The notes beneath the pieces are model-generated. The model saw only the letters and a list, made by a program, of their open reading frames with translations. It was not told the origin of the DNA and made no database searches. 64,000 nucleotides of DNA from Caloenas nicobarica (lineage: Eukaryota), in contig NC_088282.1 of the NCBI RefSeq assembly GCF_036013445.1, positions 133,631-197,630 of the forward strand. The letters are read 5' to 3'. The translations under genes were made by a program, and so were the position numbers. Shown here in pieces: positions 1,186-58,379 of the stretch (positions are counted from its first letter, which is position 1; each line of letters opens with the position of its first letter).

Positions 1186-1353
1186 CGTGCGAGGCCGCGT
1201 TCGCCACCAAGGACCGGCTGCGGGCGCACGCCGTGCGGCACGAGGAGAAGGTTCCGTGTCACGTCTGCGGGAAACTGCTCAGCGCCGCCTACATCGGGGA
1301 CCACATGAAGGTGCACGGGGCGCCCGGGCACAGCTGCGAGCTCTGCAGCAAAG
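1185..1353 (+). CDS. MAZ: MAZ C2H2 zinc-finger exon. Encodes TCEAAFATKDRLRAHAVRHEEKVPCHVCGKLLSAAYIGDHMKVHGAPGHSCELCSK.
   Basis: Near-identical to human MAZ KCEAAFATKDRLRAHTVRHEEKVPCHVCGKMLSSAYISDHMKVH. Acceptor ccccag at 1184, donor aaag|gtgtgg at 1354. Exon ends in phase 1. Confidence 0.85.
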
Positions 1354-2275
1354 GTGTGGGGCGGGGTGTGGGGCAGGATCTATGGGGCAGGGGGGCGGGC
1401 GGGGGGTGGGTGCAGGGAGGGAAAAGGGGACGCGGGTTTGGGGGAAAACGGGGCGGAATTGGGGCCGGTTTAGGTGGGAATGGGTGGGAATTTGACGACA
1501 CGGACAGGAGGTGTGGGGCGGGATCTATGGGGCGGGTTGTGGGGTGCGGGGAGGGAAAGGGGACGGGGGTTTGGGGGAAAATGGGGCGGAATTGGGTTGG
1601 ATTTGGGCAGGAAATGGTGTGAAAGAGGTTGATGTGGGGCGGGATCTATGGGGCGGGTTATGGGGTGCGGGGAGGGAAAGGGGACGCGGGTTTGGGGAAA
1701 ATGGGGCGGAATTGGGTCCATTTTAGGTGGGAATGGGTGGGAATTTGACGACACGGACAGGAGGTGTGGGGCGGGATCTATGGGCGGGTTGTGGGGTGCG
1801 GGGAGGGAAAGGGGACGGGGGTTTGGGGGAAAATGGGGCGGAATTGGGTTGGATTGGGGCAGGAAATGGTGTGAAAGAGGTTGATGTGGGGCGGGATCTA
1901 TGGGGCGGGTTATGGGGTGCGGGGAGGGAAAGGGGACGCGGGTTTGGGGGAGAAGGGGGCGGAATTGGGTCCGTTTTAGGTGGAAATGGGTGGGAATTTG
2001 ACGACACGGACAGGAGCTGTGGGGTGGGATGTGGGGCGGGATCTGTGGGGCGGGTTATGGGGTGCGGTTGGGGGGGGAAAAGGGGGCGCGAGTTTGGGGG
2101 AAACCGGGGCGGAATTGGGCCAATTTTCATCGGGAAAGGGGCAGCGATTTGACGTCACAGGCAGGATCCATGGGGCGGGATCTATGGGTTGGGATCTATG
2201 GGGCGGGTTGCGGGCGGGATCTGTGGGGCGCAGATCTATGGGGTGACCCCCCCCTCCCCCCATCCCATCCCACCT
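1354..2275. repeat. Tandem array of a G-rich unit of about 245 bp (about 3.5 copies). It is the reverse complement of the 255-1185 family.
   Basis: gggatctatggggcgggttatggggtgcggggagggaaaggggac... is the reverse complement of the C-rich motif in the preceding intron. Confidence 0.8.
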
Positions 2276-2291: not shown

Positions 2292-2392
2292 GCGGTTCGT
2301 GCCCCCTGGCGCCCCCCGGCGGCCCCTCCCCCGCGGTGCCCGCGCTGCCCCTGGAGGGGGCGCCGGCGCTCGGCCCCACCCAGCCCTGGTGA
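2292..2392 (+). CDS. MAZ: MAZ terminal coding exon. Encodes ...GGSCPLAPPGGPSPAVPALPLEGAPALGPTQPW and the stop codon.
   Basis: In frame with the previous exon and ends ...QPW-stop, as human MAZ ends SQPW. Acceptor ccccccag at 2291, TGA at 2390-2392. Confidence 0.7.
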
Positions 2393-2760
2393 AGGGGGCG
2401 GGGCCTTGGGGGGGGGTGGGTGGGCGGGGCTTGGAGGGGGCGGGGCCTCACTGGAGGCTCCACCCCCCCCCCCGGTGGGATGGGGGGAGGGGAGGGGGGG
2501 GGGGCGGGGCCTTTTGTACCAATGGGACGAGACGTGACAATAAAACCCGAGAGGCGCCGGCTGAGGCTCCGCCACCGGGGGGAGGGGCTTGGAGGGGGCG
2601 GGGCCTAAAGGGGGTGGGGTTTAAAGGGGCGGGGTCTGGAGGGGGCGGAGTCAAAATGGGGGGGTGGGGTCTAAAGGGGGCGGGGCCTCCAGGGGGCTCT
2701 AAAGGGGGTGGAGTTTAAAGGGGCGGGGCCTAAAGGGGGCGGGGCTTCCTCCAGGCCACG
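2393..2760. repeat. Array of Sp1-type GC-boxes (GGGGCGGGGC, about 12 copies) spanning the MAZ 3' UTR and downstream.
   Basis: Repeated ggggcggggcct / aaagggggtggggtttaaaggggcggggtctggagggggcgg. Confidence 0.7.
2539..2544 (+). terminator. MAZ: AATAAA polyadenylation signal for MAZ.
   Basis: aataaa sits 147 nt downstream of the MAZ stop codon. Confidence 0.5.
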
Positions 2761-3049
2761 CCCACAAGGGGTCGCCATTCCACCCCCCCCAATTCCATGG
2801 AGTTTGACCCCAAAATGTGGGGGGTTTTCCCCAAAATTGTGGGGATTTTGAGCCAAGTTATGGGGCTTTTTGCCCCCCAAATCCTGTTTGATTTTTCCCC
2901 AAATTCCATTGGAGTTTTCCCAAAATTCTCTTGTATTTTTTTTTCCCCATTTTTTCTCCCCAAATCCCCATTTTTTCCCCCCAAATCAGCCTCTCACCCC
3001 CCAAAACCTTCATTTCTATTTTTCTTTTTATTCCCTGGGGGGGGGGTCG

Positions 3050-4100
3050 CTCAGAGGTCAAAGGTCACTTGGGGTTGTCAATCGCCAGCTGGTTGCTCCC
3101 ACGTGGGGTCACGTGGGGTCACTTGAGGTGTCAATCACTGCTTGGAGGTCAAAGGTCACGCGGGGATGTCAATCACCAGCTCGTCGTCCCCATCCAGGGT
3201 CACGTGGGGTCACAGGGGTCACGTGGGGTCGCTCGGGTTGTCAATCAATGGCCGCTCCGGGGTCACGTGGGGTCACAGGGGTCATGTGGGGTCACAGGGG
3301 TCACTCAGCTTGTCAATCAATCATCGCTCCGGGGTCACATGAGGTCACAGGGATCACATGGGGTCACAAAGGTCATGTGGGGTCACTAGGTTGTCAATCA
3401 ATGGCTGCTCCGGGGTCACGTGGGGTCACTAGGTTGTCAATCAATGGCCGCTCCGGGGTCACGTAGGGTCACAGGGGTCATGTGGGGTCACAGGGGTCAC
3501 TTGGCTTGTCAATCAATCATCACTCCGGGGTCACGTGGGGTCACAGGGGTCACTCCGGTTGTCAATCAATGGCCGCTCCGGGGTCACGTGAGGTCACAGG
3601 GGTCAGTCAGGTTGTCAATCAATCATCACTCCGGGGTCACGTGGGGTCACAGGGGTCACTCCGGTTGTCAATCATCACTCCGGGGTCACGTGGGGTCACA
3701 GGAGTCACTCCGGTTGTCAATCAATGGCCGCTCCGGGGTCACGTGAGGTCACAGGGGTCAGTCAGGTTGTCAATCAATCATCACTCCGGGGTCACGTGGG
3801 GTCACAGGGGTCACTCAGGTTGTCAATCAATGGCGGCTCCGGGGTCACGTGGGGTCACAGGGCTCACTCCGGTTGTCAATCATCACTCCGGGGTCACGTG
3901 GGGTCACAGGGCTCACTCCGGTTGTCAATCATCACTCCGGGGTCACGTGGGGTCACAGGGGTCACTCAGGTTGTCAATCAATGGCGGCTCCGGGGTCACG
4001 TGGGGTCACAGGGCTCACTCCGGTTGTCAATCATCACTCCGGGGTCACGTGGGGTCACAGGGGTCACTCCGGTTGTCAATCAGCGGCCGCTCCGGGGTCA
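3050..4100. repeat. Tandem array of a unit of about 55-58 bp (about 18 copies). Each unit has a CACGTG E-box and three GGGTCA half-sites.
   Basis: Unit ggggtcacgtggggtcacaggggtcactccggttgtcaatcaatggccgctcc. It lies between the convergent MAZ and INO80E 3' ends. Confidence 0.85.
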
Positions 4101-4104
4101 GAGG

Positions 4105-4344
4105 TCACTCGGGGATGTCAATCACCAGCTCGTCGTCCCCGTCCAGGGCGTCGTCCCCGCTGCCCTCCCCCCCCTCCCCCTCCCCCTCCCCCCCCCCGTG
4201 GCTCAGGAGCCTCCGGGGGACGGTGCTGGGGACGGGGGGAGGGGCGGGGGGCGGGGCGGGGGGCGGGGCCAGCGCGGGGGGGGGGAGGGGCCCGGCCTGG
4301 CCACGCCCCGGGGGGGGGAAGGGAAACGGGGGGGTGGGGGGGAC
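4105..4344 (-). CDS. INO80E: INO80E terminal exon. Encodes [20 protein letters not shown]...[45 protein letters not shown] and the stop codon.
   Basis: The C-terminus matches human ...[33 protein letters not shown]-stop. Stop codon (reverse complement TGA) at 4105-4107. Acceptor cccccccccag at 4345-4346. Confidence 0.75.
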   Translation of the reverse strand, partial: [79 protein letters not shown]

Positions 4345-4379
4345 CTGGGGGGGGGGGGGAAATAGGGGGGTCGGGGGGG

Positions 4380-4700
4380 GTCACGTGATGCACTGGGACA
4401 CGGCCCCGCCCCCAGCCCCACAAGTGACCCCCCCACCTCCGGACCCACAAGTGACCCGAAGTGACCCCCAAGTGCCCCGTAACTGCCCCCCCAGCCCCAC
4501 AGATTAACACCCCCAGGCCCGCAAGTGCCCCATAAGTGACCCCATGACCCCCCAGCTGCCCCATAAGTGACCTCATGATCCCCCAGCTGCCCCATAAGTG
4601 ATTTCAGCCCCATATATTGACCCCCAAGTGCCCCATAACTGCCCCCGCAACCCCACAAATTAGCCCCCCCAGGCCCCCAGCTGCCCCATAAGTGCCCCCC
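4380..4700. repeat. CCCCATAAGTGACC-type short tandem repeats.
   Basis: ccccataagtgaccccatgaccccccagctgccccataagtga. The same motif family recurs at 5700-6170 and 19400-20300 (there as its reverse complement). Confidence 0.6.
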
Positions 4701-5299: not shown

Positions 5300-5600
5300 G
5301 GTCAGGGGGGCGGGGCCAAGGCGGCAGCCATCTTGGAGCCCCGCCCACCTCCCCGGCGGCCATCTTGGCTGCTGGCAGCGGCCATATTGAAGCCTGGCAG
5401 CCATATTGGAGCCCCGCCCACCTCCCTGGCAGCCATATTGGATGCTGGCGGCGGCCATCTTGAAGCCTGGCGGCCATCTTGGAAGCCTTCCCACGACCCT
5501 GGCGGCCATCTTAGAAGCTGGCGGCGGCCATATTGAAGCCTGGCGGCCATCTTGGAGCCCCGCCCACCACCCCGGCGGCCATCTTGGCCCCGCCCCCCAC
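5300..5600. repeat. Tandem array of about 13 consensus YY1 sites (GGCGGCCATCTTGG and GCCATATTGG variants), unit about 20-24 bp.
   Basis: gcggcagccatcttggagccccgcccacctccccggcggccatcttggctgctggcagcggccatattgaagcctggcagccatattggagcc... It lies in INO80E intron 4. Confidence 0.85.
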
Positions 5601-5667
5601 CTCTTGCCGCCGTCGCTGCCTTTGTTCCCGTCCCCGTCGCTGTCGGACGTCGCCGTCGCCTCCGAAT
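5601..5667 (-). CDS. INO80E: INO80E exon 4. Encodes DSEATATSDSDGDGNKGSDGGK(R).
   Basis: Matches human [21 protein letters not shown]. Acceptor ccccag, donor aagag|gtgggg. Phases agree. Confidence 0.65.
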
Positions 5668-5699
5668 CTGGGGCGGGGAGGAGCCGATGGGGACCCATA

Positions 5700-6170
5700 G
5701 CGACCCCCAAGTCCCCCCCCAGCCCCACAAGTGCCTGAAATTGACCCATAATTGCCCCATAACGACTCCCCGGTGCCCCCCAACTTCCCCATGTTGACCC
5801 CTAAGTGCCCCCAAATGACCCATAAATGCCCCAAAGTGACCCATAAATGCCCCACAGCGACCCCCAAGTTCGCCCGCGGCCCCATAACTACCCCACAATG
5901 TCACCCGGCTGCCCCATACTGATCCCTGAACGACCCATAAATGCCCCAAATTGACCTACACCTGCCCCACAGCGACCCCCAAGTTCCCCCCCGCCCCATA
6001 AGTGCCTGAAACTGACCCATAAGTGCCCCATAGAGAGTCCCCAGTGCCCCCCATTGACCGTCAGCCTCCCCACATTGACCCCCAAGTGCCCCCAAATTGA
6101 CCCATAAATGCCCCAAATTGACCCGTAACTGCCCCATAGCGACCCCCAAGTTCCCCCCCAGCCCCATAAG
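5700..6170. repeat. Short tandem repeats of the CCCATAAGTG / CCCATAAATGCCCCAAAGTGAC type.
   Basis: gacccataaatgccccaaagtgacccataaatgccccacagcgacccccaagtt repeated. Confidence 0.6.
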
Positions 6171-6186
6171 TGTCGCTCCCCATTAC

Positions 6187-6239
6187 CCGTCGTCTCCTCG
6201 TCCACGTTCTCATAGAGCAGCAGCCGGTCCAGCAAATAA
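6187..6239 (-). CDS. INO80E: INO80E exon 3. Encodes (S)YLLDRLLLYENVDEETT.
   Basis: Matches human SFLLDRLLQYENVDED. Acceptor ccccag, donor acgg|gtaatg. Confidence 0.75.
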
Positions 6240-20859: not shown

Positions 20860-21700
20860 TGAGCGACCCACAAGTGTGGGGCTGGACCCAGAAGTGTGGG
20901 GCTGGACCCATAAGTGTGGGGTGGGGGGGGGTTGGGGCCCAAAACTGGGGGTTTGGGAGCTCAGAAAGGGGGTTGTGGGGTCAGAAATGGGTCTCAAGGG
21001 GTGTTTCGGGACCCAGAAGTGTGGGGCGGGACCCAGAAGTGTGGGGCTGGACCCATAAGGGGGGGGGGGGGGGCCCAAAACTGGGGGTTGTGGGGTCAGA
21101 AATGGGCCTCACGGGGTGTTTCGGGACCCATAAGTGTGGGGCAGGACCCAGAAGTGTGGGGCTGGACCCATAAGTGTGGGGTGGGGGGGGGGGTGGGGCC
21201 CAAAACTGGGGGTTTGGGGGCTCAGAAAGGGGGGTTGTGGGGTCAGAAATGGGTCTCACGGGGTGTTTCGGGACCCAGAAGTGTGGGGCGGGAGCCAGAA
21301 GTGTGGGGCTGGACCCATAAGTGTGGGGTGGGGGGGGGAGTGGGGCCCAAAACTGGGGGTTTGGGGGCTCAGAAAGGGGGGTTGTGGGGTCAGAAATGGG
21401 TCTCAAGGGGTGTTTTGGGACCCATAAGTGTGGGGTGGGACCCATAAGTGTGTGGCAGGGGGGGATTTAGGGCCTAGAAATGAGGGTTGGGGGGACATTG
21501 GGCCCCACAGCTGTGGGGCAGGGGGATGTTGGGACCCATACGTGTGGGGCTGGACCCATACGTGTGGGGCGGGACCCATCAGTGTGGGACGGGGGGGGGG
21601 ATTTGGGGCCTAGAAATGAGGGTTTGGGGGACATTGGGCCCCACAGCTGTGGGGCAGGGGGGATGTTGGGCCCCATAGATGTGGGGCAGGGCATGTGGGG
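20860..21700. repeat. Tandem repeat of about 120 bp (gacccagaagtgtggggctggacccataagtgtggggtggggggg...) in a TAOK2 intron.
   Basis: About 6 direct copies. Confidence 0.8.
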
Positions 21701-21750
21701 CAGAGGGGCCGCCCCGCCCCACATCTATGGGGCAGGGCCGGTCTCCTCAG

Positions 21751-21796
21751 CTGGCCATGGAGCGCTGCCTGGGTTCGGCCGCCGACCTGCTGGAGG
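21751..21796 (+). CDS. TAOK2: TAOK2 exon. Encodes [15 protein letters not shown](G/V).
   Basis: Matches human LVMEYCLGSASDLLEV. Acceptor tcctcag, donor gagg|gtgagt. Confidence 0.8.
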
Positions 21797-21880
21797 GTGA
21801 GTGCCGTGGGGCGGCGCTATGGGGCGGCCCCATAGATCTCCCCGCCCCTCACCCCCCCACCTCACGCTCTGCCCCCCAAG

Positions 21881-21977
21881 TGCACAAGAAGCCGCTGCGG
21901 GAGGTGGAGATCGCGGCCGTCAGCCAGGGAGCGCTGCGGGGCCTGGCCTATCTGCACCAGCTCGGGGTCATCCACAG
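21881..21977 (+). CDS. TAOK2: TAOK2 exon. Encodes (V)[31 protein letters not shown](R).
   Basis: Matches human [33 protein letters not shown]. Acceptor ccccaag, donor cacag|gtgcgc. Confidence 0.8.
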
Positions 21978-21989
21978 GTGCGCCCCATA

Positions 21990-24012: not shown

Positions 24013-24104
24013 GATGGCTCCCGAGGTGATCGTGGCCGTGGACGAGGGGCCGTACGACGGGAGGGCCGACGTCTGGTCCATGGGCATCACCTGCATCGAG
24101 CTGG
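24013..24104 (+). CDS. TAOK2: TAOK2 exon. Encodes [30 protein letters not shown].
   Basis: Matches human [30 protein letters not shown]. Acceptor ccccccag at 24012, donor ctgg|gtgagc. Confidence 0.85.
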
Positions 24105-24300
24105 GTGAGCGCTATGGGGCTGCCCCACACGTCCGCCCCACAAGCGGCGCGGCGGCCGAGCCGGCGTTGGGTCGTTTGTATTGAGACCGGGGGGGCACTT
24201 AGGGGGCAGCTCCGGGACACTCGGGGGTCGGTTACAGCACAGTTAGAGGGGGGTTATGGGGCTTCTGTGGGGCTGCCCCACATGTGGCCGTGCCCCACAG

Positions 24301-24394
24301 CGGAGCGGAAGCCGCCGCTGTTCCACCTGAACGCCATGAGCGCCCTTTACCACATCGCCCAGAGCGACCCCCCCCGTCTGCAGGGACCCAACTG
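24301..24394 (+). CDS. TAOK2: TAOK2 exon. Encodes (A)[30 protein letters not shown](W).
   Basis: Matches human [32 protein letters not shown]. Acceptor ccccacag at 24300, donor actg|gtgagc. Confidence 0.85.
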
Positions 24395-24399
24395 GTGAG

Positions 24400-46446: not shown

Positions 46447-46694
46447 TCAGAGCCGCCGGATCTTCATCTCGCTCTTCTTGAGCGAGTAGTAGAAGCCCTT
46501 CCACTGGGCCCAGTTGATGCCGTTGGCGTAGGAGAGGTGGGCGCCCCCCAGGTAGAAGCCGTTGAGGTTGGAGAAGTGGCAGCTCTTGAACCACCAGGCG
46601 CCCGAGGAGAGGGCGGCGCAGTTCTGCACGTACAGGTCCTGGTCGCGGTCGAACGTGGAGAATTTCTGCCCGTTGTGGTAGCTCAGGGAGTCGC
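46447..46694 (-). CDS. MFAP4: MFAP4 terminal exon (fibrinogen C-terminal domain). Encodes (G)[81 protein letters not shown] and the stop codon.
   Basis: Near-identical to human MFAP4 [81 protein letters not shown]. The stop codon (reverse complement TGA) begins at 46447. Confidence 0.9.
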
Positions 46695-46699
46695 CTGGG

Positions 46700-49330
46700 G
46701 GGGGGGGGGGGTTGGGGACATCACGGGGGGGGCGGCGGCGCCGCTGTGGACCTGGGGTCCCCACATCGTGGGCAACGTTGACCTGTTGTCCCCTCCGTTG
46801 ACCTGGGGTCCCCTCCCCATGGTCCATGTTGACCTGGGGTCCCTTCTATTGACCTGGGGTCTCCATTGACCTGGGGTCCCCTTCCCATGGTCCACGTTGA
46901 CCTGGGGTCTCCATTGACCTGGGGTCTCCTTCCCATGGTCTATGTTGACCTGTTGTCCCCTCCATTGACCTGGAGTACCCTCCCCATGGTCCATGTTGAC
47001 CTGGGGTCTCCATTGATCTGTTGTCCCCTCCATTGACCTGTTGTCCCCTCCATTGACCTGGGGTCCCCTCCCCATGGTCCATGTTGACCTGGGGTCTATA
47101 TTGACCTGGGGTCTCCGTTGACCTGGGGTCCCCTTCCCATGGTCTACGTTGACCTGTCGTCCCCTCAGTTGACCTGGGGTCCCCTCCCCATGGTCTATGT
47201 TGACCTGGGGTCTCCATTGACCTGGGGTCCCCTTCCCATGGTCTCGTTGACCTGTTGTCCCCTCTGTTGACCTGGGGTCCGCTCCCCGTGGTCCATGTTG
47301 ACCTGGGGTCTCCATTGATCTGTTGTCCCCTCCATTGACCTGTTGTCCCCTCCATTGACCTGGGGTCCCCTTCCCATGGTCTACGTTGACCTGTTGTCCC
47401 CTCCGTTGACCTGGGGTCCCCTCCCCATGGTCTATGTTGACCTGGGGTCTCCATTGACCTGTTGTCCCCTCCATTGACCTGGGGTCCCCTCCCCATGGTC
47501 CATGTTGACCTGGGGTCCCTTCTATTGACCTGGGGTCTCCATTGACCTGGGGTCCCCTTCCCATGGTCCACGTTGACCTGGGGTCTCCATTGACCTGGGG
47601 TCTCCATTGACCTGGGGTCTCCTTCCCATGGTCTATGTTGACCTGTTGTCCCCTCCGTTGACCTGGGGTCCCCTCCCCATGGTCCATGTTGACCTGGGGT
47701 CTCCATTGACCTGTTGTCCCCTCCATTGACCTGGAGTCCCCTTCCCATGGTCTACGTTGACCTGTTGTCCCCTCTGCTGACCTGGGGTCCCCTCCCCATG
47801 GTCCATGTCGACCTGGGGTCCCCTCCATTGACCTGGGGTCTCCTCCCCGTGGTCCATGTTGACCTGGGGTCTCCATTGACCTGTTGTCCCCTCCATTGAC
47901 CTGGGGTCCCCTTCCCATGGTCCATGTTGACCTGGGGTCTCCATTGACCTGGGGTCTCCATTGACCTGGGGTCCCCTTCCCATGGTCTACGTTGACCTGT
48001 TGTCCCCTCCGTTGACCTGGGGTCCCCTCCCCATGGTCCATGTTGACCTGGGGTCCCTTCTATTGACCTGGGGTCTCCATTGACCTGGGGTCCCCTTCCC
48101 ATGGTCTACGTTGACCTGGGGTCCCTTCTATTGACCTGGGGTCTCCATTGACCTGGGGTCCCCTTCCCATGGTCTATGTTGACCTGTTGTCCCCTCCATT
48201 GACCTGGGGTCCGCTCCCCGTGGTCCATGTTGACCTGGGGTCTCCATTGACCTGTTGTCCCCTCCATTGACCTGGGGTCCCCTTCCCATGGTCCATGTTG
48301 ACCTGGGGTCTCCATTGACCTGGGGTCCCCTTCCCATGGTCTCGTTGACCTGTTGTCCCCTCCATTGACCTGGGGTCCCCTCCCCATGGTCCATGTTGAC
48401 CTGGGGTCTCCATTGACCTGGGGTCCCCTCCTCATGGTCCACAGTGACCTGGTGTCCCCCCATCATTGTCTACGTTCACCTGGGGTCCCCCCACCTCGTC
48501 CCCATGCCCAGTGTTGACCCATTGACCCCCCATGGCCAACGTTGACTTCGTGACCCCTCCCCATGGCCAATCTTGACTTGGTGTCCCCTCCCCATGCCCC
48601 CCATTGACCCCTTGACCCCCCATGGCCAACGTTGACCCCTTGACCCCCCATTGACCCATTGACCCTTCCCCATGCCCCCCATTGACCCCTTGCCCCCCAT
48701 GGCCAATGTTGACCCATTGACCCCTCCCCATGCCCCCCATTGACCCCCCATGGCCAATATTGACTTGGTGTCCCCTCCCCACATCCCCCATTGACCCATT
48801 GACCCCCCATGGCCAACGTTGACTTCATGACCCCTCCCCAAGCCCCACATTGACCCCCCATGGCCAACGTTGCCCCATTGACCCCCCATGGCCAACGTTG
48901 ACCCATTGACCCCCCATGGCCAACGTTGCCCCATTGACCCCCCATGGCCAACGTTGCCCCATTGACCCCCCATGGCCAACGTTGACTTCATGACCCCTCC
49001 CCACGCCCCCCATGCCAATATTGACTTGGTGTCCCCTCCCCATTGACCCATTGACCCCCCATGGCCAACGTTGACTTCATGACCCCTCCCCAAGCCCCAC
49101 ATTGACCCATTGACCCCCCATGGCCAACGTTGCCCCATTGACCCCCCATGGCCAACGTTGACTTCATGACCCCTCCCCAAGCCCCACATTGACCCATTGA
49201 CCCCCCATGGCCAACGTTGACTTCATGACCCCTCCCCAAGCCCCACATTGACCCCCCATGGCCAACGTTGCCCCATTGACCCCCCCATGGCCAACGCTGA
49301 CTTCATGACCCTTCCCCACGCCCCCCATTG
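46700..49330. repeat. Two adjacent satellites. A unit of about 60 bp, GACCTGGGGTCTCCATTGACCTGGGGTCCCCTTCCCATGGTC, runs 46700-48450. CCCCATGGCCAACGTTGACCCATTGA units run 48450-49330.
   Basis: Direct tandem arrays fill the last MFAP4 intron. Confidence 0.85.
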
Positions 49331-58060: not shown

Positions 58061-58095
58061 GCTGACGCGTCCCCCCGCAGGGGGCTTTTGGGGCC

Positions 58096-58373
58096 ATGTA
58101 CAATGGGATCGGGCTGGCGACGCCGCGGGGCAGCGGCACCAACGGCTACGTCCAGCGCAACCTCTCGGCCCTGCGGGGCAAACGGGAACCCAGAACCGGC
58201 AGCACCGGGACCGGCAGCACCGGAGACCCCCCCGGGGGGGAGCAGGAGGAGCCGCGCAGGCTGGAGGCCGGGGGGCTGCTCCGCAAACCCAACCCCGACA
58301 TCCTCGACCACCAGCGCAAGAGGAAGGTGGAGCTGAAATGCCTGGAGCTGGCCGAGCTCATGGAGGAACAGGG
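58096..58373 (+). CDS. SRRM2: SRRM2 first coding exon. Encodes [35 protein letters not shown]...LLRKPNPDILDHQRKRKVELKCLELAELMEEQ(G).
   Basis: Matches human SRRM2 [28 protein letters not shown]...RPNPDILDHERKRRVELRCLELEEMMEEQG. ATG at 58096-58098, donor cagg|ggtgagc (GT at 58374). Confidence 0.85.
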
Positions 58374-58379
58374 GTGAGC

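Follow-up and report, generated by a model that had tools for sequence, protein, structure and literature searches.

Are the E-boxes and nuclear-receptor-type half-sites that fill a tandem array at the 3′ end of a bird gene a regulatory platform, or were they produced by the repeat itself? The question is raised by 64,000 nucleotides of Caloenas nicobarica (NC_088282.1 of assembly GCF_036013445.1, forward-strand positions 133,631 to 197,630; called the window for simplicity, with positions counted from its first letter), in which INO80E lies on the minus strand and the 3′ portion of MAZ on the plus strand, with convergent 3′ ends. A first-pass annotation, made from the letters alone, had drawn attention to repeated copies of the E-box CACGTG and the half-site GGGTCA next to the INO80E stop codon. 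Here, we describe how this array is built, where it lies relative to the two genes and what is found at the same position in other birds. Judged by its sequence, the array was made by amplification of the final codons of INO80E together with its stop codon. It is most probably a locally born minisatellite carried as a passenger in the INO80E 3′ untranslated region (UTR), which would have arisen by a stuttering of the terminal exon analogous to the "sequence stuttering" of chicken dot-chromosome genes, in which local sequence is expanded into imperfect tandems with blocks of tens to hundreds of bp, as for example in PHF8 intron 18 (PMC12954441, Genome Biol Evol 2026). On this view, it is one more outcome of the repeat instability that is ordinary on dot chromosomes, and not a conserved platform for transcription factors.

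Results

Array units read as copies of the INO80E coding end

The tandem array occupies positions 3037-4123 of the window (about 1.1 kb) and comprises 20 units when these are anchored on GTCAATC. The units are spaced by 53 bp (seven times), 49 bp (four), 72 bp (three) and 38, 42, 43 and 81 bp (once each), with a mean of 54.7 bp; the array is thus present where the first-pass annotation had placed it, and its estimate of about 18 units of about 57 bp is corrected to 20 units with modal lengths of 53 and 49 bp. With unit lengths of 38-81 bp and 76-88% matches, the tandem is imperfect. By Tandem Repeats Finder (TRF), the stretch 3474-4100 has periods of 53, 102 and 208 bp (85-88% matches), and 3197-3605 is less regular, with periods of 43, 72 and 124 bp. 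A 41-nt unit core was found 12 times at up to three mismatches when the window was searched, all within the array, indicating that the repeat is local and not a dispersed satellite.

On the sense strand of INO80E, unit 20 is the real coding end of the gene (…VIDIPE*) together with the first UTR bases (alignment A1), and its TGACCTCTGACCCCG stretch is identical in Grus, which is without an array. Each unit opens with a copy of ATTGACAnCCnGAGTGA, and the last 20-23 coding nucleotides of INO80E recur in register in every unit. Longer copies of the coding end are also present: positions 3156-3199 repeat the last 44 coding nucleotides at 95.5% identity (71.6 bits), positions 3065-3093 hold a further copy (86% identity, 35.6 bits), and in alignment A1 the copies that contain these two stretches extend over 3137-3222 and 3040-3125. 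A typical unit, GATTGACAACCGGAGTGACCCCTGTGACCCCACGTGACCCCGGAGTGATGATT, consists of a coding-end copy followed by two extra sub-repeats of 9-10 bp, GTGACCCCnn. The array had been described as beginning right after the INO80E stop codon; the position of the stop (4107-4105) is correct, but the unit at 4082-4123 holds the stop codon and the last codons, which moves the start of the array into the coding end. The coding frame itself is intact, and its end, …DGDDELVIDIPE*, is the same in Grus, Athene and human.

The E-boxes and half-sites are by-products of repeat construction

CACGTG occurs 17 times in 3050-4100 and four times in the remaining 63 kb. All 17 copies share one context, CCCCACGTGACCCC / ACGTGACCC, and they are distributed over 15 of the 20 units. 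GGGTCA occurs 48 times in the array (RGGTCA 56-57 times), with zero to five copies per unit and exactly three in 7 of the 20 units. An E-box and three half-sites had been reported for each unit; the motifs are real, the regularity per unit is not. The proposed direct-repeat spacing was confirmed: the start-to-start distance between half-sites is 10 bp in 20 cases (DR4-like, a direct repeat with a 4-nt spacer), 9 bp in 13 cases (DR3-like) and 7 bp in three cases, i.e. 33 DR3- or DR4-spaced RGGTCA pairs lie within 1.1 kb.

Both motifs can be traced to the way in which the units are put together. On the opposite strand, GGGTCA reads as the duplicated stop codon TGA followed by CCC, and CACGTG arises at the junction where …CCCCAC of one 9-10 bp sub-repeat meets GTGACCCC of the next. 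Because the array is built from the stop codon region and this sub-repeat junction, the two motifs are by-products of its construction. Dinucleotide shuffles of the whole array yielded 0.8 CACGTG (maximum 4) and 12.4 GGGTCA (maximum 21) against the 17 and 48 observed, which puts both counts far above chance; such an excess, however, comes with any unit that has been copied many times. The appropriate null is the shuffled 53-bp consensus unit, in which CACGTG appears with a probability of 0.019 and any CANNTG with a probability of 0.20. The enrichment of E-boxes over shuffled units, to which the first-pass annotation had looked, is therefore present but trivial for a copied unit and decides nothing.

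The junctions also differ along the array. Among 21 DR4-type junctions, 15 read CGTG, three TGTG, two CATG and one CGTA; the six variants are confined to the older half, in which 6 E-box positions are intact and 6 decayed, and five of the six decayed junctions are CpG transitions. That all 11 E-boxes are intact in the young half is attributed to recent copying, several of its units being identical. Array units are not independent, because their subtypes were inherited by block duplication. Compared with Rfam 15, the array gave no match reaching the family gathering score inside 3037-4123 (sub-threshold miRNA-like matches were weak and all outside it), and its sense-strand RNA fold was not unusual (z = -1.0). 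A role of G-quadruplexes was considered and dropped, as the three canonical motifs in the array (plus strand, old half) compare with 199 on that strand window-wide and are not distinctive. We infer that E-boxes and DR3/DR4 half-sites came about by accident from the sequence of the unit, without detectable constraint. A meaningful array of USF/MYC/MITF and nuclear-receptor sites, as originally suggested, is not upheld by motifs that derive from a stop codon and a junction, are unconserved and have decayed at 6 of 12 older E-box positions.

Arrays of different make-up occupy the same site in other birds

The INO80E locus was compared with seven other sources, including Grus, Athene, Dryobates, hawfinch, Myiozetetes and malkoha; a galliform mRNA contig ends 42 nt past the stop codon and is uninformative on the array. 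Hawfinch, Myiozetetes and malkoha carry arrays at the same position, starting from the INO80E stop codon and each built of the species' own coding end. Grus, Athene and Dryobates have no such array after the stop codon. Motifs were counted in the first 1 kb after the stop codon in the seven birds. GTGA was found 62 times in the window, 118 times in hawfinch, 29 times in Myiozetetes and 61 times in malkoha, and not once in Grus, Athene and Dryobates. TGACC was counted 56, 123, 40 and 0 times in the four array-bearing birds in the same order, once each in Grus and Dryobates and not in Athene. CACGTG, present 17 times in this interval of the window, was absent from all six others.

The spacing of the half-sites varies as well, with TGACCA at 11-bp spacing in hawfinch, 11- and 7-bp spacing in Myiozetetes, and neither TGACC nor RGGTCA in malkoha. 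Common to all four arrays is only the coding-end core (GAGTGA, ATYGAC), with GAGTGA, the pair of the Glu codon and the stop codon, in 17, 101, 26 and 48 copies in the window, hawfinch, Myiozetetes and malkoha arrays, respectively. Array length ranges from 0.5 to 1.6 kb across lineages, and unit and sub-repeat also differ. Among the birds compared, only the window's lineage has the E-box, and the half-site is not found in all arrays; the conservation check proposed for the array thus turned out negative for its motifs, with no CACGTG in the three same-position arrays and no TGACC in malkoha. As far as the assemblies tell, such arrays occur in at least three bird orders. The malkoha copies retain the ancestral GTGATTGAC, whereas the malkoha coding sequence now reads GTTATCGAC, and this derived form is found in the two copies nearest the stop codon. 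Ancestral and derived copies side by side indicate that copying took place in more than one wave, i.e. at least two.

Athene noctua has repeats of another kind downstream of INO80E: a 19-bp unit, TTTTGGGGAAAAATAAAA, is present in about 77 copies (L001 12242-13671), and the AATAAA-bearing segment past the stop codon is itself amplified, giving 25 AATAAA in 1.6 kb.

The array probably lies within the INO80E 3′ UTR

On the sense strand, the 1,071 nt past the INO80E stop codon are free of all 15 variants of the poly(A)-signal hexamer that were looked for. The first AATAAA, at 3032-3027 and not at 3036-3041 as annotated before, follows about 5 nt after the last repeat, and the GU-rich GGTTTTGGGGGGTG comes about 20 nt further on. 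This arrangement would place the end of the INO80E 3′ UTR at about 3005-3012, and the array is probably carried as about 1.05 kb of a 3′ UTR of about 1.1 kb. The poly(A) signals of MAZ and INO80E are 490 bp apart and their inferred 3′ ends about 450 bp apart, which would put the array inside the INO80E transcription unit and not between two 3′ ends. The earlier suggestion that the array is part of the 3′ UTR is supported by the lack of an earlier poly(A) signal and by Myiozetetes, where the array is likewise followed by AATAAA. Dryobates and Athene, both array-free, have AATAAA at 48 and 124 nt past the stop codon, respectively; most simply, the array would have been inserted into a 3′ UTR that had been short before. 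The poly(A) regions are too repeat-rich for their cross-species alignment (A2) to prove orthology of the AATAAA signals.

Gene context and surrounding repeats

INO80E exons were located by tblastn with an approximate human INO80E query, followed by in-frame translation. Database searches returned INO80E and PF24237 with birds as best matches; full-length matches to the full query reached 45-57% only, birds being best, and a search with the last exon alone gave no useful match. The INO80E and MAZ assignments and the convergent layout of the first-pass annotation are correct. The convergent order of INO80E and a zinc-finger gene is also found in Grus and Myiozetetes, and the INO80E exons of the window are 90-94% identical to those of Grus and Athene and 85-89% identical to those of passerines. 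Below position 6000, the plus strand has no AATAAA other than the MAZ poly(A) signal. All features are collected in the table.

Features of the INO80E/MAZ locus and same-position arrays of other birds (window positions unless an L number precedes them)
Feature	Position	Strand	Remarks or basis
MAZ C2H2 zinc-finger exons	161-260, 1233-1370	+	
MAZ coding end …GPTQPW*	~2390-2392	+	
MAZ poly(A) signal AATAAA	2539..2544	+	
Putative MAZ/INO80E intergenic spacer	2570..3010	.	full of unrelated 16-22 bp repeats (GGGGCGGGGCCTGAA and CCCCAAAAT types)
First AATAAA downstream of INO80E stop	3027..3032	-	sense nt 1076
Third, more diverged coding-end copy with two sub-repeats	3040..3136	-	distal array end
Second copy of INO80E coding end	3137..3222	-	…LDGDDELVIDIPA*-like
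Older heterogeneous units	3223..3514	-	43-81 bp, 2-5 sub-repeats each; decayed E-boxes CACATG, CATGTG, CACGTA
Young homogeneous half	3515..4081	-	11 units of 53/49 bp, three subtypes, several units mutually identical, one intact CACGTG per unit
Unit 20, seed	4082..4123	-	true coding end, stop and first 3′ UTR bases (GATTGACATCCCCGAGTGACCTCTGACCCCGGAGCGGCCGCT)
INO80E stop TGA	4105..4107	-	source of "TCA" in every GGGTCA; translation, comparison with other birds
Last coding exon of INO80E	4108..4380	-	end …SGDDALDGDDELVIDIPE; tblastn, in-frame translation, database matches
INO80E exon 2	~7217	-	tblastn, translation
INO80E exon 1	~9345	-	start MNGAAEQDGGGYKRRYRALKRR…; tblastn, translation
Hawfinch array	L002 12045-13680		1.6 kb; 11-bp GAGTGACCACT sub-repeat and copies of ATCGACCTGCCCGAGTGACC
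Myiozetetes array	L005 13654-14150		period 49; AATAAA directly after
Malkoha (Phaenicophaeus curvirostris) array	L008 6883-8075		period 57/49/33; copies of GTGATTGACAGCCCTGAGTGA

Several further observations concern INO80E itself. Exons 3-4 (~5600-6235, minus strand) are unusually diverged, the window reading …YENVDEETTGNGE… and …DSEATATSDSDGDGNKGSDGGKR… against …YENVDDDSSDSEATASSDNSDGEG… in other birds. Another CACGTG is found at 4382 (GGGGTCACGTGATGC), on the 5′ border of the last exon. The final intron (4390-4600) contains a different repeat, CACAAGTGACCCC, which carries GTGACCCC on the strand opposite to the array, and the same intron in Athene (L001 11500-11840) is full of a related 19-bp repeat. 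An intron array at 5323-5587 (period 73 bp) holds ten copies of GCCAT[CA]TTG, nine of these as GGC[GA]GCCAT[CA]TTG; on the INO80E sense strand it reads AAGATGGCC, similar to the YY1 core motif. In Myiozetetes, gene model P0062 runs through a comparable …KMAA… repeat.

According to TRF, 75% of the 64 kb lies in tandem arrays, 58% in 41 large ones (score >= 300) next to many more that are small, and many of the long open reading frames of the window are mere in-frame repeats. Its GC content is 57-71%, except for a low-GC island (0.34-0.43) at about 12-16 kb. The orthologous loci are found on small records, CM054343.1 of 0.55 Mb in Grus and OZ222766.1 of 0.75 Mb in Athene. By these sequence properties (GC-rich, saturated with repeats, orthologues on records of 0.55 and 0.75 Mb) the window fits a bird dot chromosome; INO80E has been listed among the GC-rich "hidden" bird genes (PMC4539667). 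Elsewhere in the window, a Fibrinogen_C exon (MFAP4-like, Pfam 1.8e-28; 46450-46845, minus strand) and the N-terminus of a cwf21-domain protein (SRRM2-like, Pfam 9e-8; 58066-58374, plus strand) were identified, as well as TAOK2-like kinase exons (21679-21987 and 24030-24395, plus strand) that were seen by eye only and had no Pfam match.

Discussion

The order of units along the array suggests how it might have grown. By analogy with the published cases of stuttering (PMC12954441), short direct repeats of the coding end, namely TGAC…TGAC in GTGATTGACATCCCCGAGTGAC and TGACCTCTGACC just past the stop codon, would have allowed misalignment, through replication slippage, unequal exchange or non-crossover conversion. 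In an early step, a block of about 90 bp with the last ~13 codons, the stop codon and the first UTR bases would have been copied, leaving the relics at 3137-3222 and 3040-3136. Later, the 9-10 bp sub-repeat GTGACCCCnn and then the 49/53-bp unit GATTGACAACCGGAGTGACCCCTGTGACCCCACGTGACCCCGGAGYGRYSATT would have been amplified between the true coding end and these relics. The outcome would be what is seen in the window, an intact coding sequence and, from its stop codon to the first poly(A) signal, the array.

What else could account for such an array? Its motifs invite a function as DNA, with the E-boxes (CACGTGAC) and the DR3/DR4 sites either enhancing transcription or keeping the chromatin of the convergent genes MAZ and INO80E apart as a barrier. 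The flank in CACGTGAC is of the type preferred by USF and TFE factors, a single context is shared by 17 perfect CACGTG copies, 33 suitably spaced RGGTCA pairs are packed into 1.1 kb, and the CpG observed/expected ratio (o/e) of the array is slightly above the window mean. A DNA element is nevertheless very unlikely in our view: CACGTG is absent from the hawfinch, Myiozetetes and malkoha arrays and RGGTCA from that of malkoha, Grus, Athene and Dryobates live without an array, half of the older E-box positions have decayed mostly by CpG transitions, the motifs are fully accounted for by the stop codon and the sub-repeat junction, and the array lies within the inferred transcription unit and not between two 3′ ends. 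Selection could instead act on the transcript or the transcription unit, with the repeated GAGUGA/UGACC serving an RNA-binding protein or mRNA stability, or with the array as a spacer limiting collision with MAZ transcription. Arrays from the same coding end in the stop-to-poly(A) region of four divergent lineages, the GAGTGA core that all four have in common and the distance of only 490 bp between the two poly(A) signals would agree with this idea. We nonetheless consider it improbable, as three other birds keep a short unique segment after the stop codon (up to 120 nt in two of them, with AATAAA at 48 nt in Dryobates and 124 nt in Athene), array length, unit and sub-repeat vary between lineages, RNA structure and Rfam gave nothing unusual, and in 64 kb of which 75% is tandem arrays one more array needs no selection. 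A further possibility is a repeat mis-expanded or mis-collapsed during assembly of a GC-rich region that is hard to sequence; assembly problems are known for dot-chromosome repeats (PMC12954441, PMC4539667), and a Lathamus contig (91% in an N-terminal INO80E search) breaks inside INO80E. The interior of the array is ordered, with an old-to-young gradient, three unit subtypes and coding-end relics, and like arrays are found in three independent assemblies of other species, so that an artefact is extremely improbable, although the exact copy number could still be wrong.

The reading as a locally born minisatellite that travels in the 3′ UTR has to face several points that fit it less well. The published screen covered chicken introns, with copies abutting splice sites, and is applied here by extension. 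All 11 E-boxes of the young half are intact, which is compatible with recent amplification but could also mean protection from methylation. CpG o/e is 0.61 in the array against 0.48 for the window mean; as a signal, this difference is too small and too confounded by unit composition. Finally, an array at the same site in four of seven sampled lineages could mean that the site is selected and not merely mutable. The boldest version, in which the INO80E stop region is a persistent hotspot across Neoaves or a selected site, and a long, stop-rich repeated 3′ UTR, or the E-box DNA in this species, would buffer or regulate the MAZ/INO80E pair, seems to us a long shot.

The array illustrates that an apparent cluster of transcription-factor sites can be a mechanical by-product of the birth of a repeat, its 48 half-sites being copies of one stop codon, and calls for caution with motif scans in bird dot chromosomes. 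It would extend exon stuttering from introns to a terminal exon and its 3′ UTR. A site at which several bird lineages show stuttering could also be useful for asking how expansions of this kind begin (from short direct repeats at the seed?) and if they arise repeatedly or are retained. In the literature, we found no paper describing the INO80E array locus or stop-codon stuttering. Stuttering from a stop codon into the 3′ UTR, at the same site in several bird lineages, appears to be modestly new.

Minisatellites in 3′ UTRs (variable number tandem repeats, VNTRs) are known, for example the 40-bp VNTR of human SLC6A3 (DAT1). Like it, the window array has units of tens of bp between the stop codon and the poly(A) site; unlike it, the units were copied from the stop codon and final codons of the gene in which they lie. 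E-box and DR3/DR4 response elements are matched at the sequence level, in that the CACGTG cores are perfect and RGGTCA half-sites form direct repeats spaced by 3 and 4 nt, but the array motifs are unconserved, CpG-decayed in older copies and explained by their stop-codon origin. In the telomere-to-telomere (T2T) assembly of the zebra finch, dot-chromosome minisatellites favor units in multiples of 10-11 bp (bioRxiv 10.1101/2025.10.17.683159). The arrays described here resemble them in the length of their sub-repeats (9-10 bp in the window array, 11 bp in those of hawfinch and Myiozetetes), in units of 49, 53 and 57 bp (about five times the sub-repeat) and in a G-rich strand that is the template strand of the gene; that study, however, treats intronic minisatellites in bulk, without tracing arrays to coding ends.

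The comparison with exon stuttering is more detailed. In chicken, partial copies of the adjacent exon edge measure 20-187 nt (median 36) and are present in 1-44 copies over a median span of 1.75 kb, with the coding exon left intact; the screen was restricted to introns, and intergenic sequence was noted as affected too (PMC12954441). The confidence threshold of its BLASTn search, set by a shuffled control, was 42.1 bits; of the coding-end copies in the window, the one of 71.6 bits (44 nt) lies above it and the one of 35.6 bits below, and their source is a coding/UTR boundary and not a splice junction. The published copies lie in chicken introns and include splice sites, whereas the window array copies a stop codon and extends past the coding end into the putative 3′ UTR, and the INO80E arrays are found at one site in at least four non-galliform lineages. 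In other respects the two agree: the window array is a local imperfect tandem with blocks of tens of bp, it spans about 1.1 kb next to an intact coding sequence, and it lies in GC-rich DNA that is saturated with tandem repeats and carries dot-chromosome genes.

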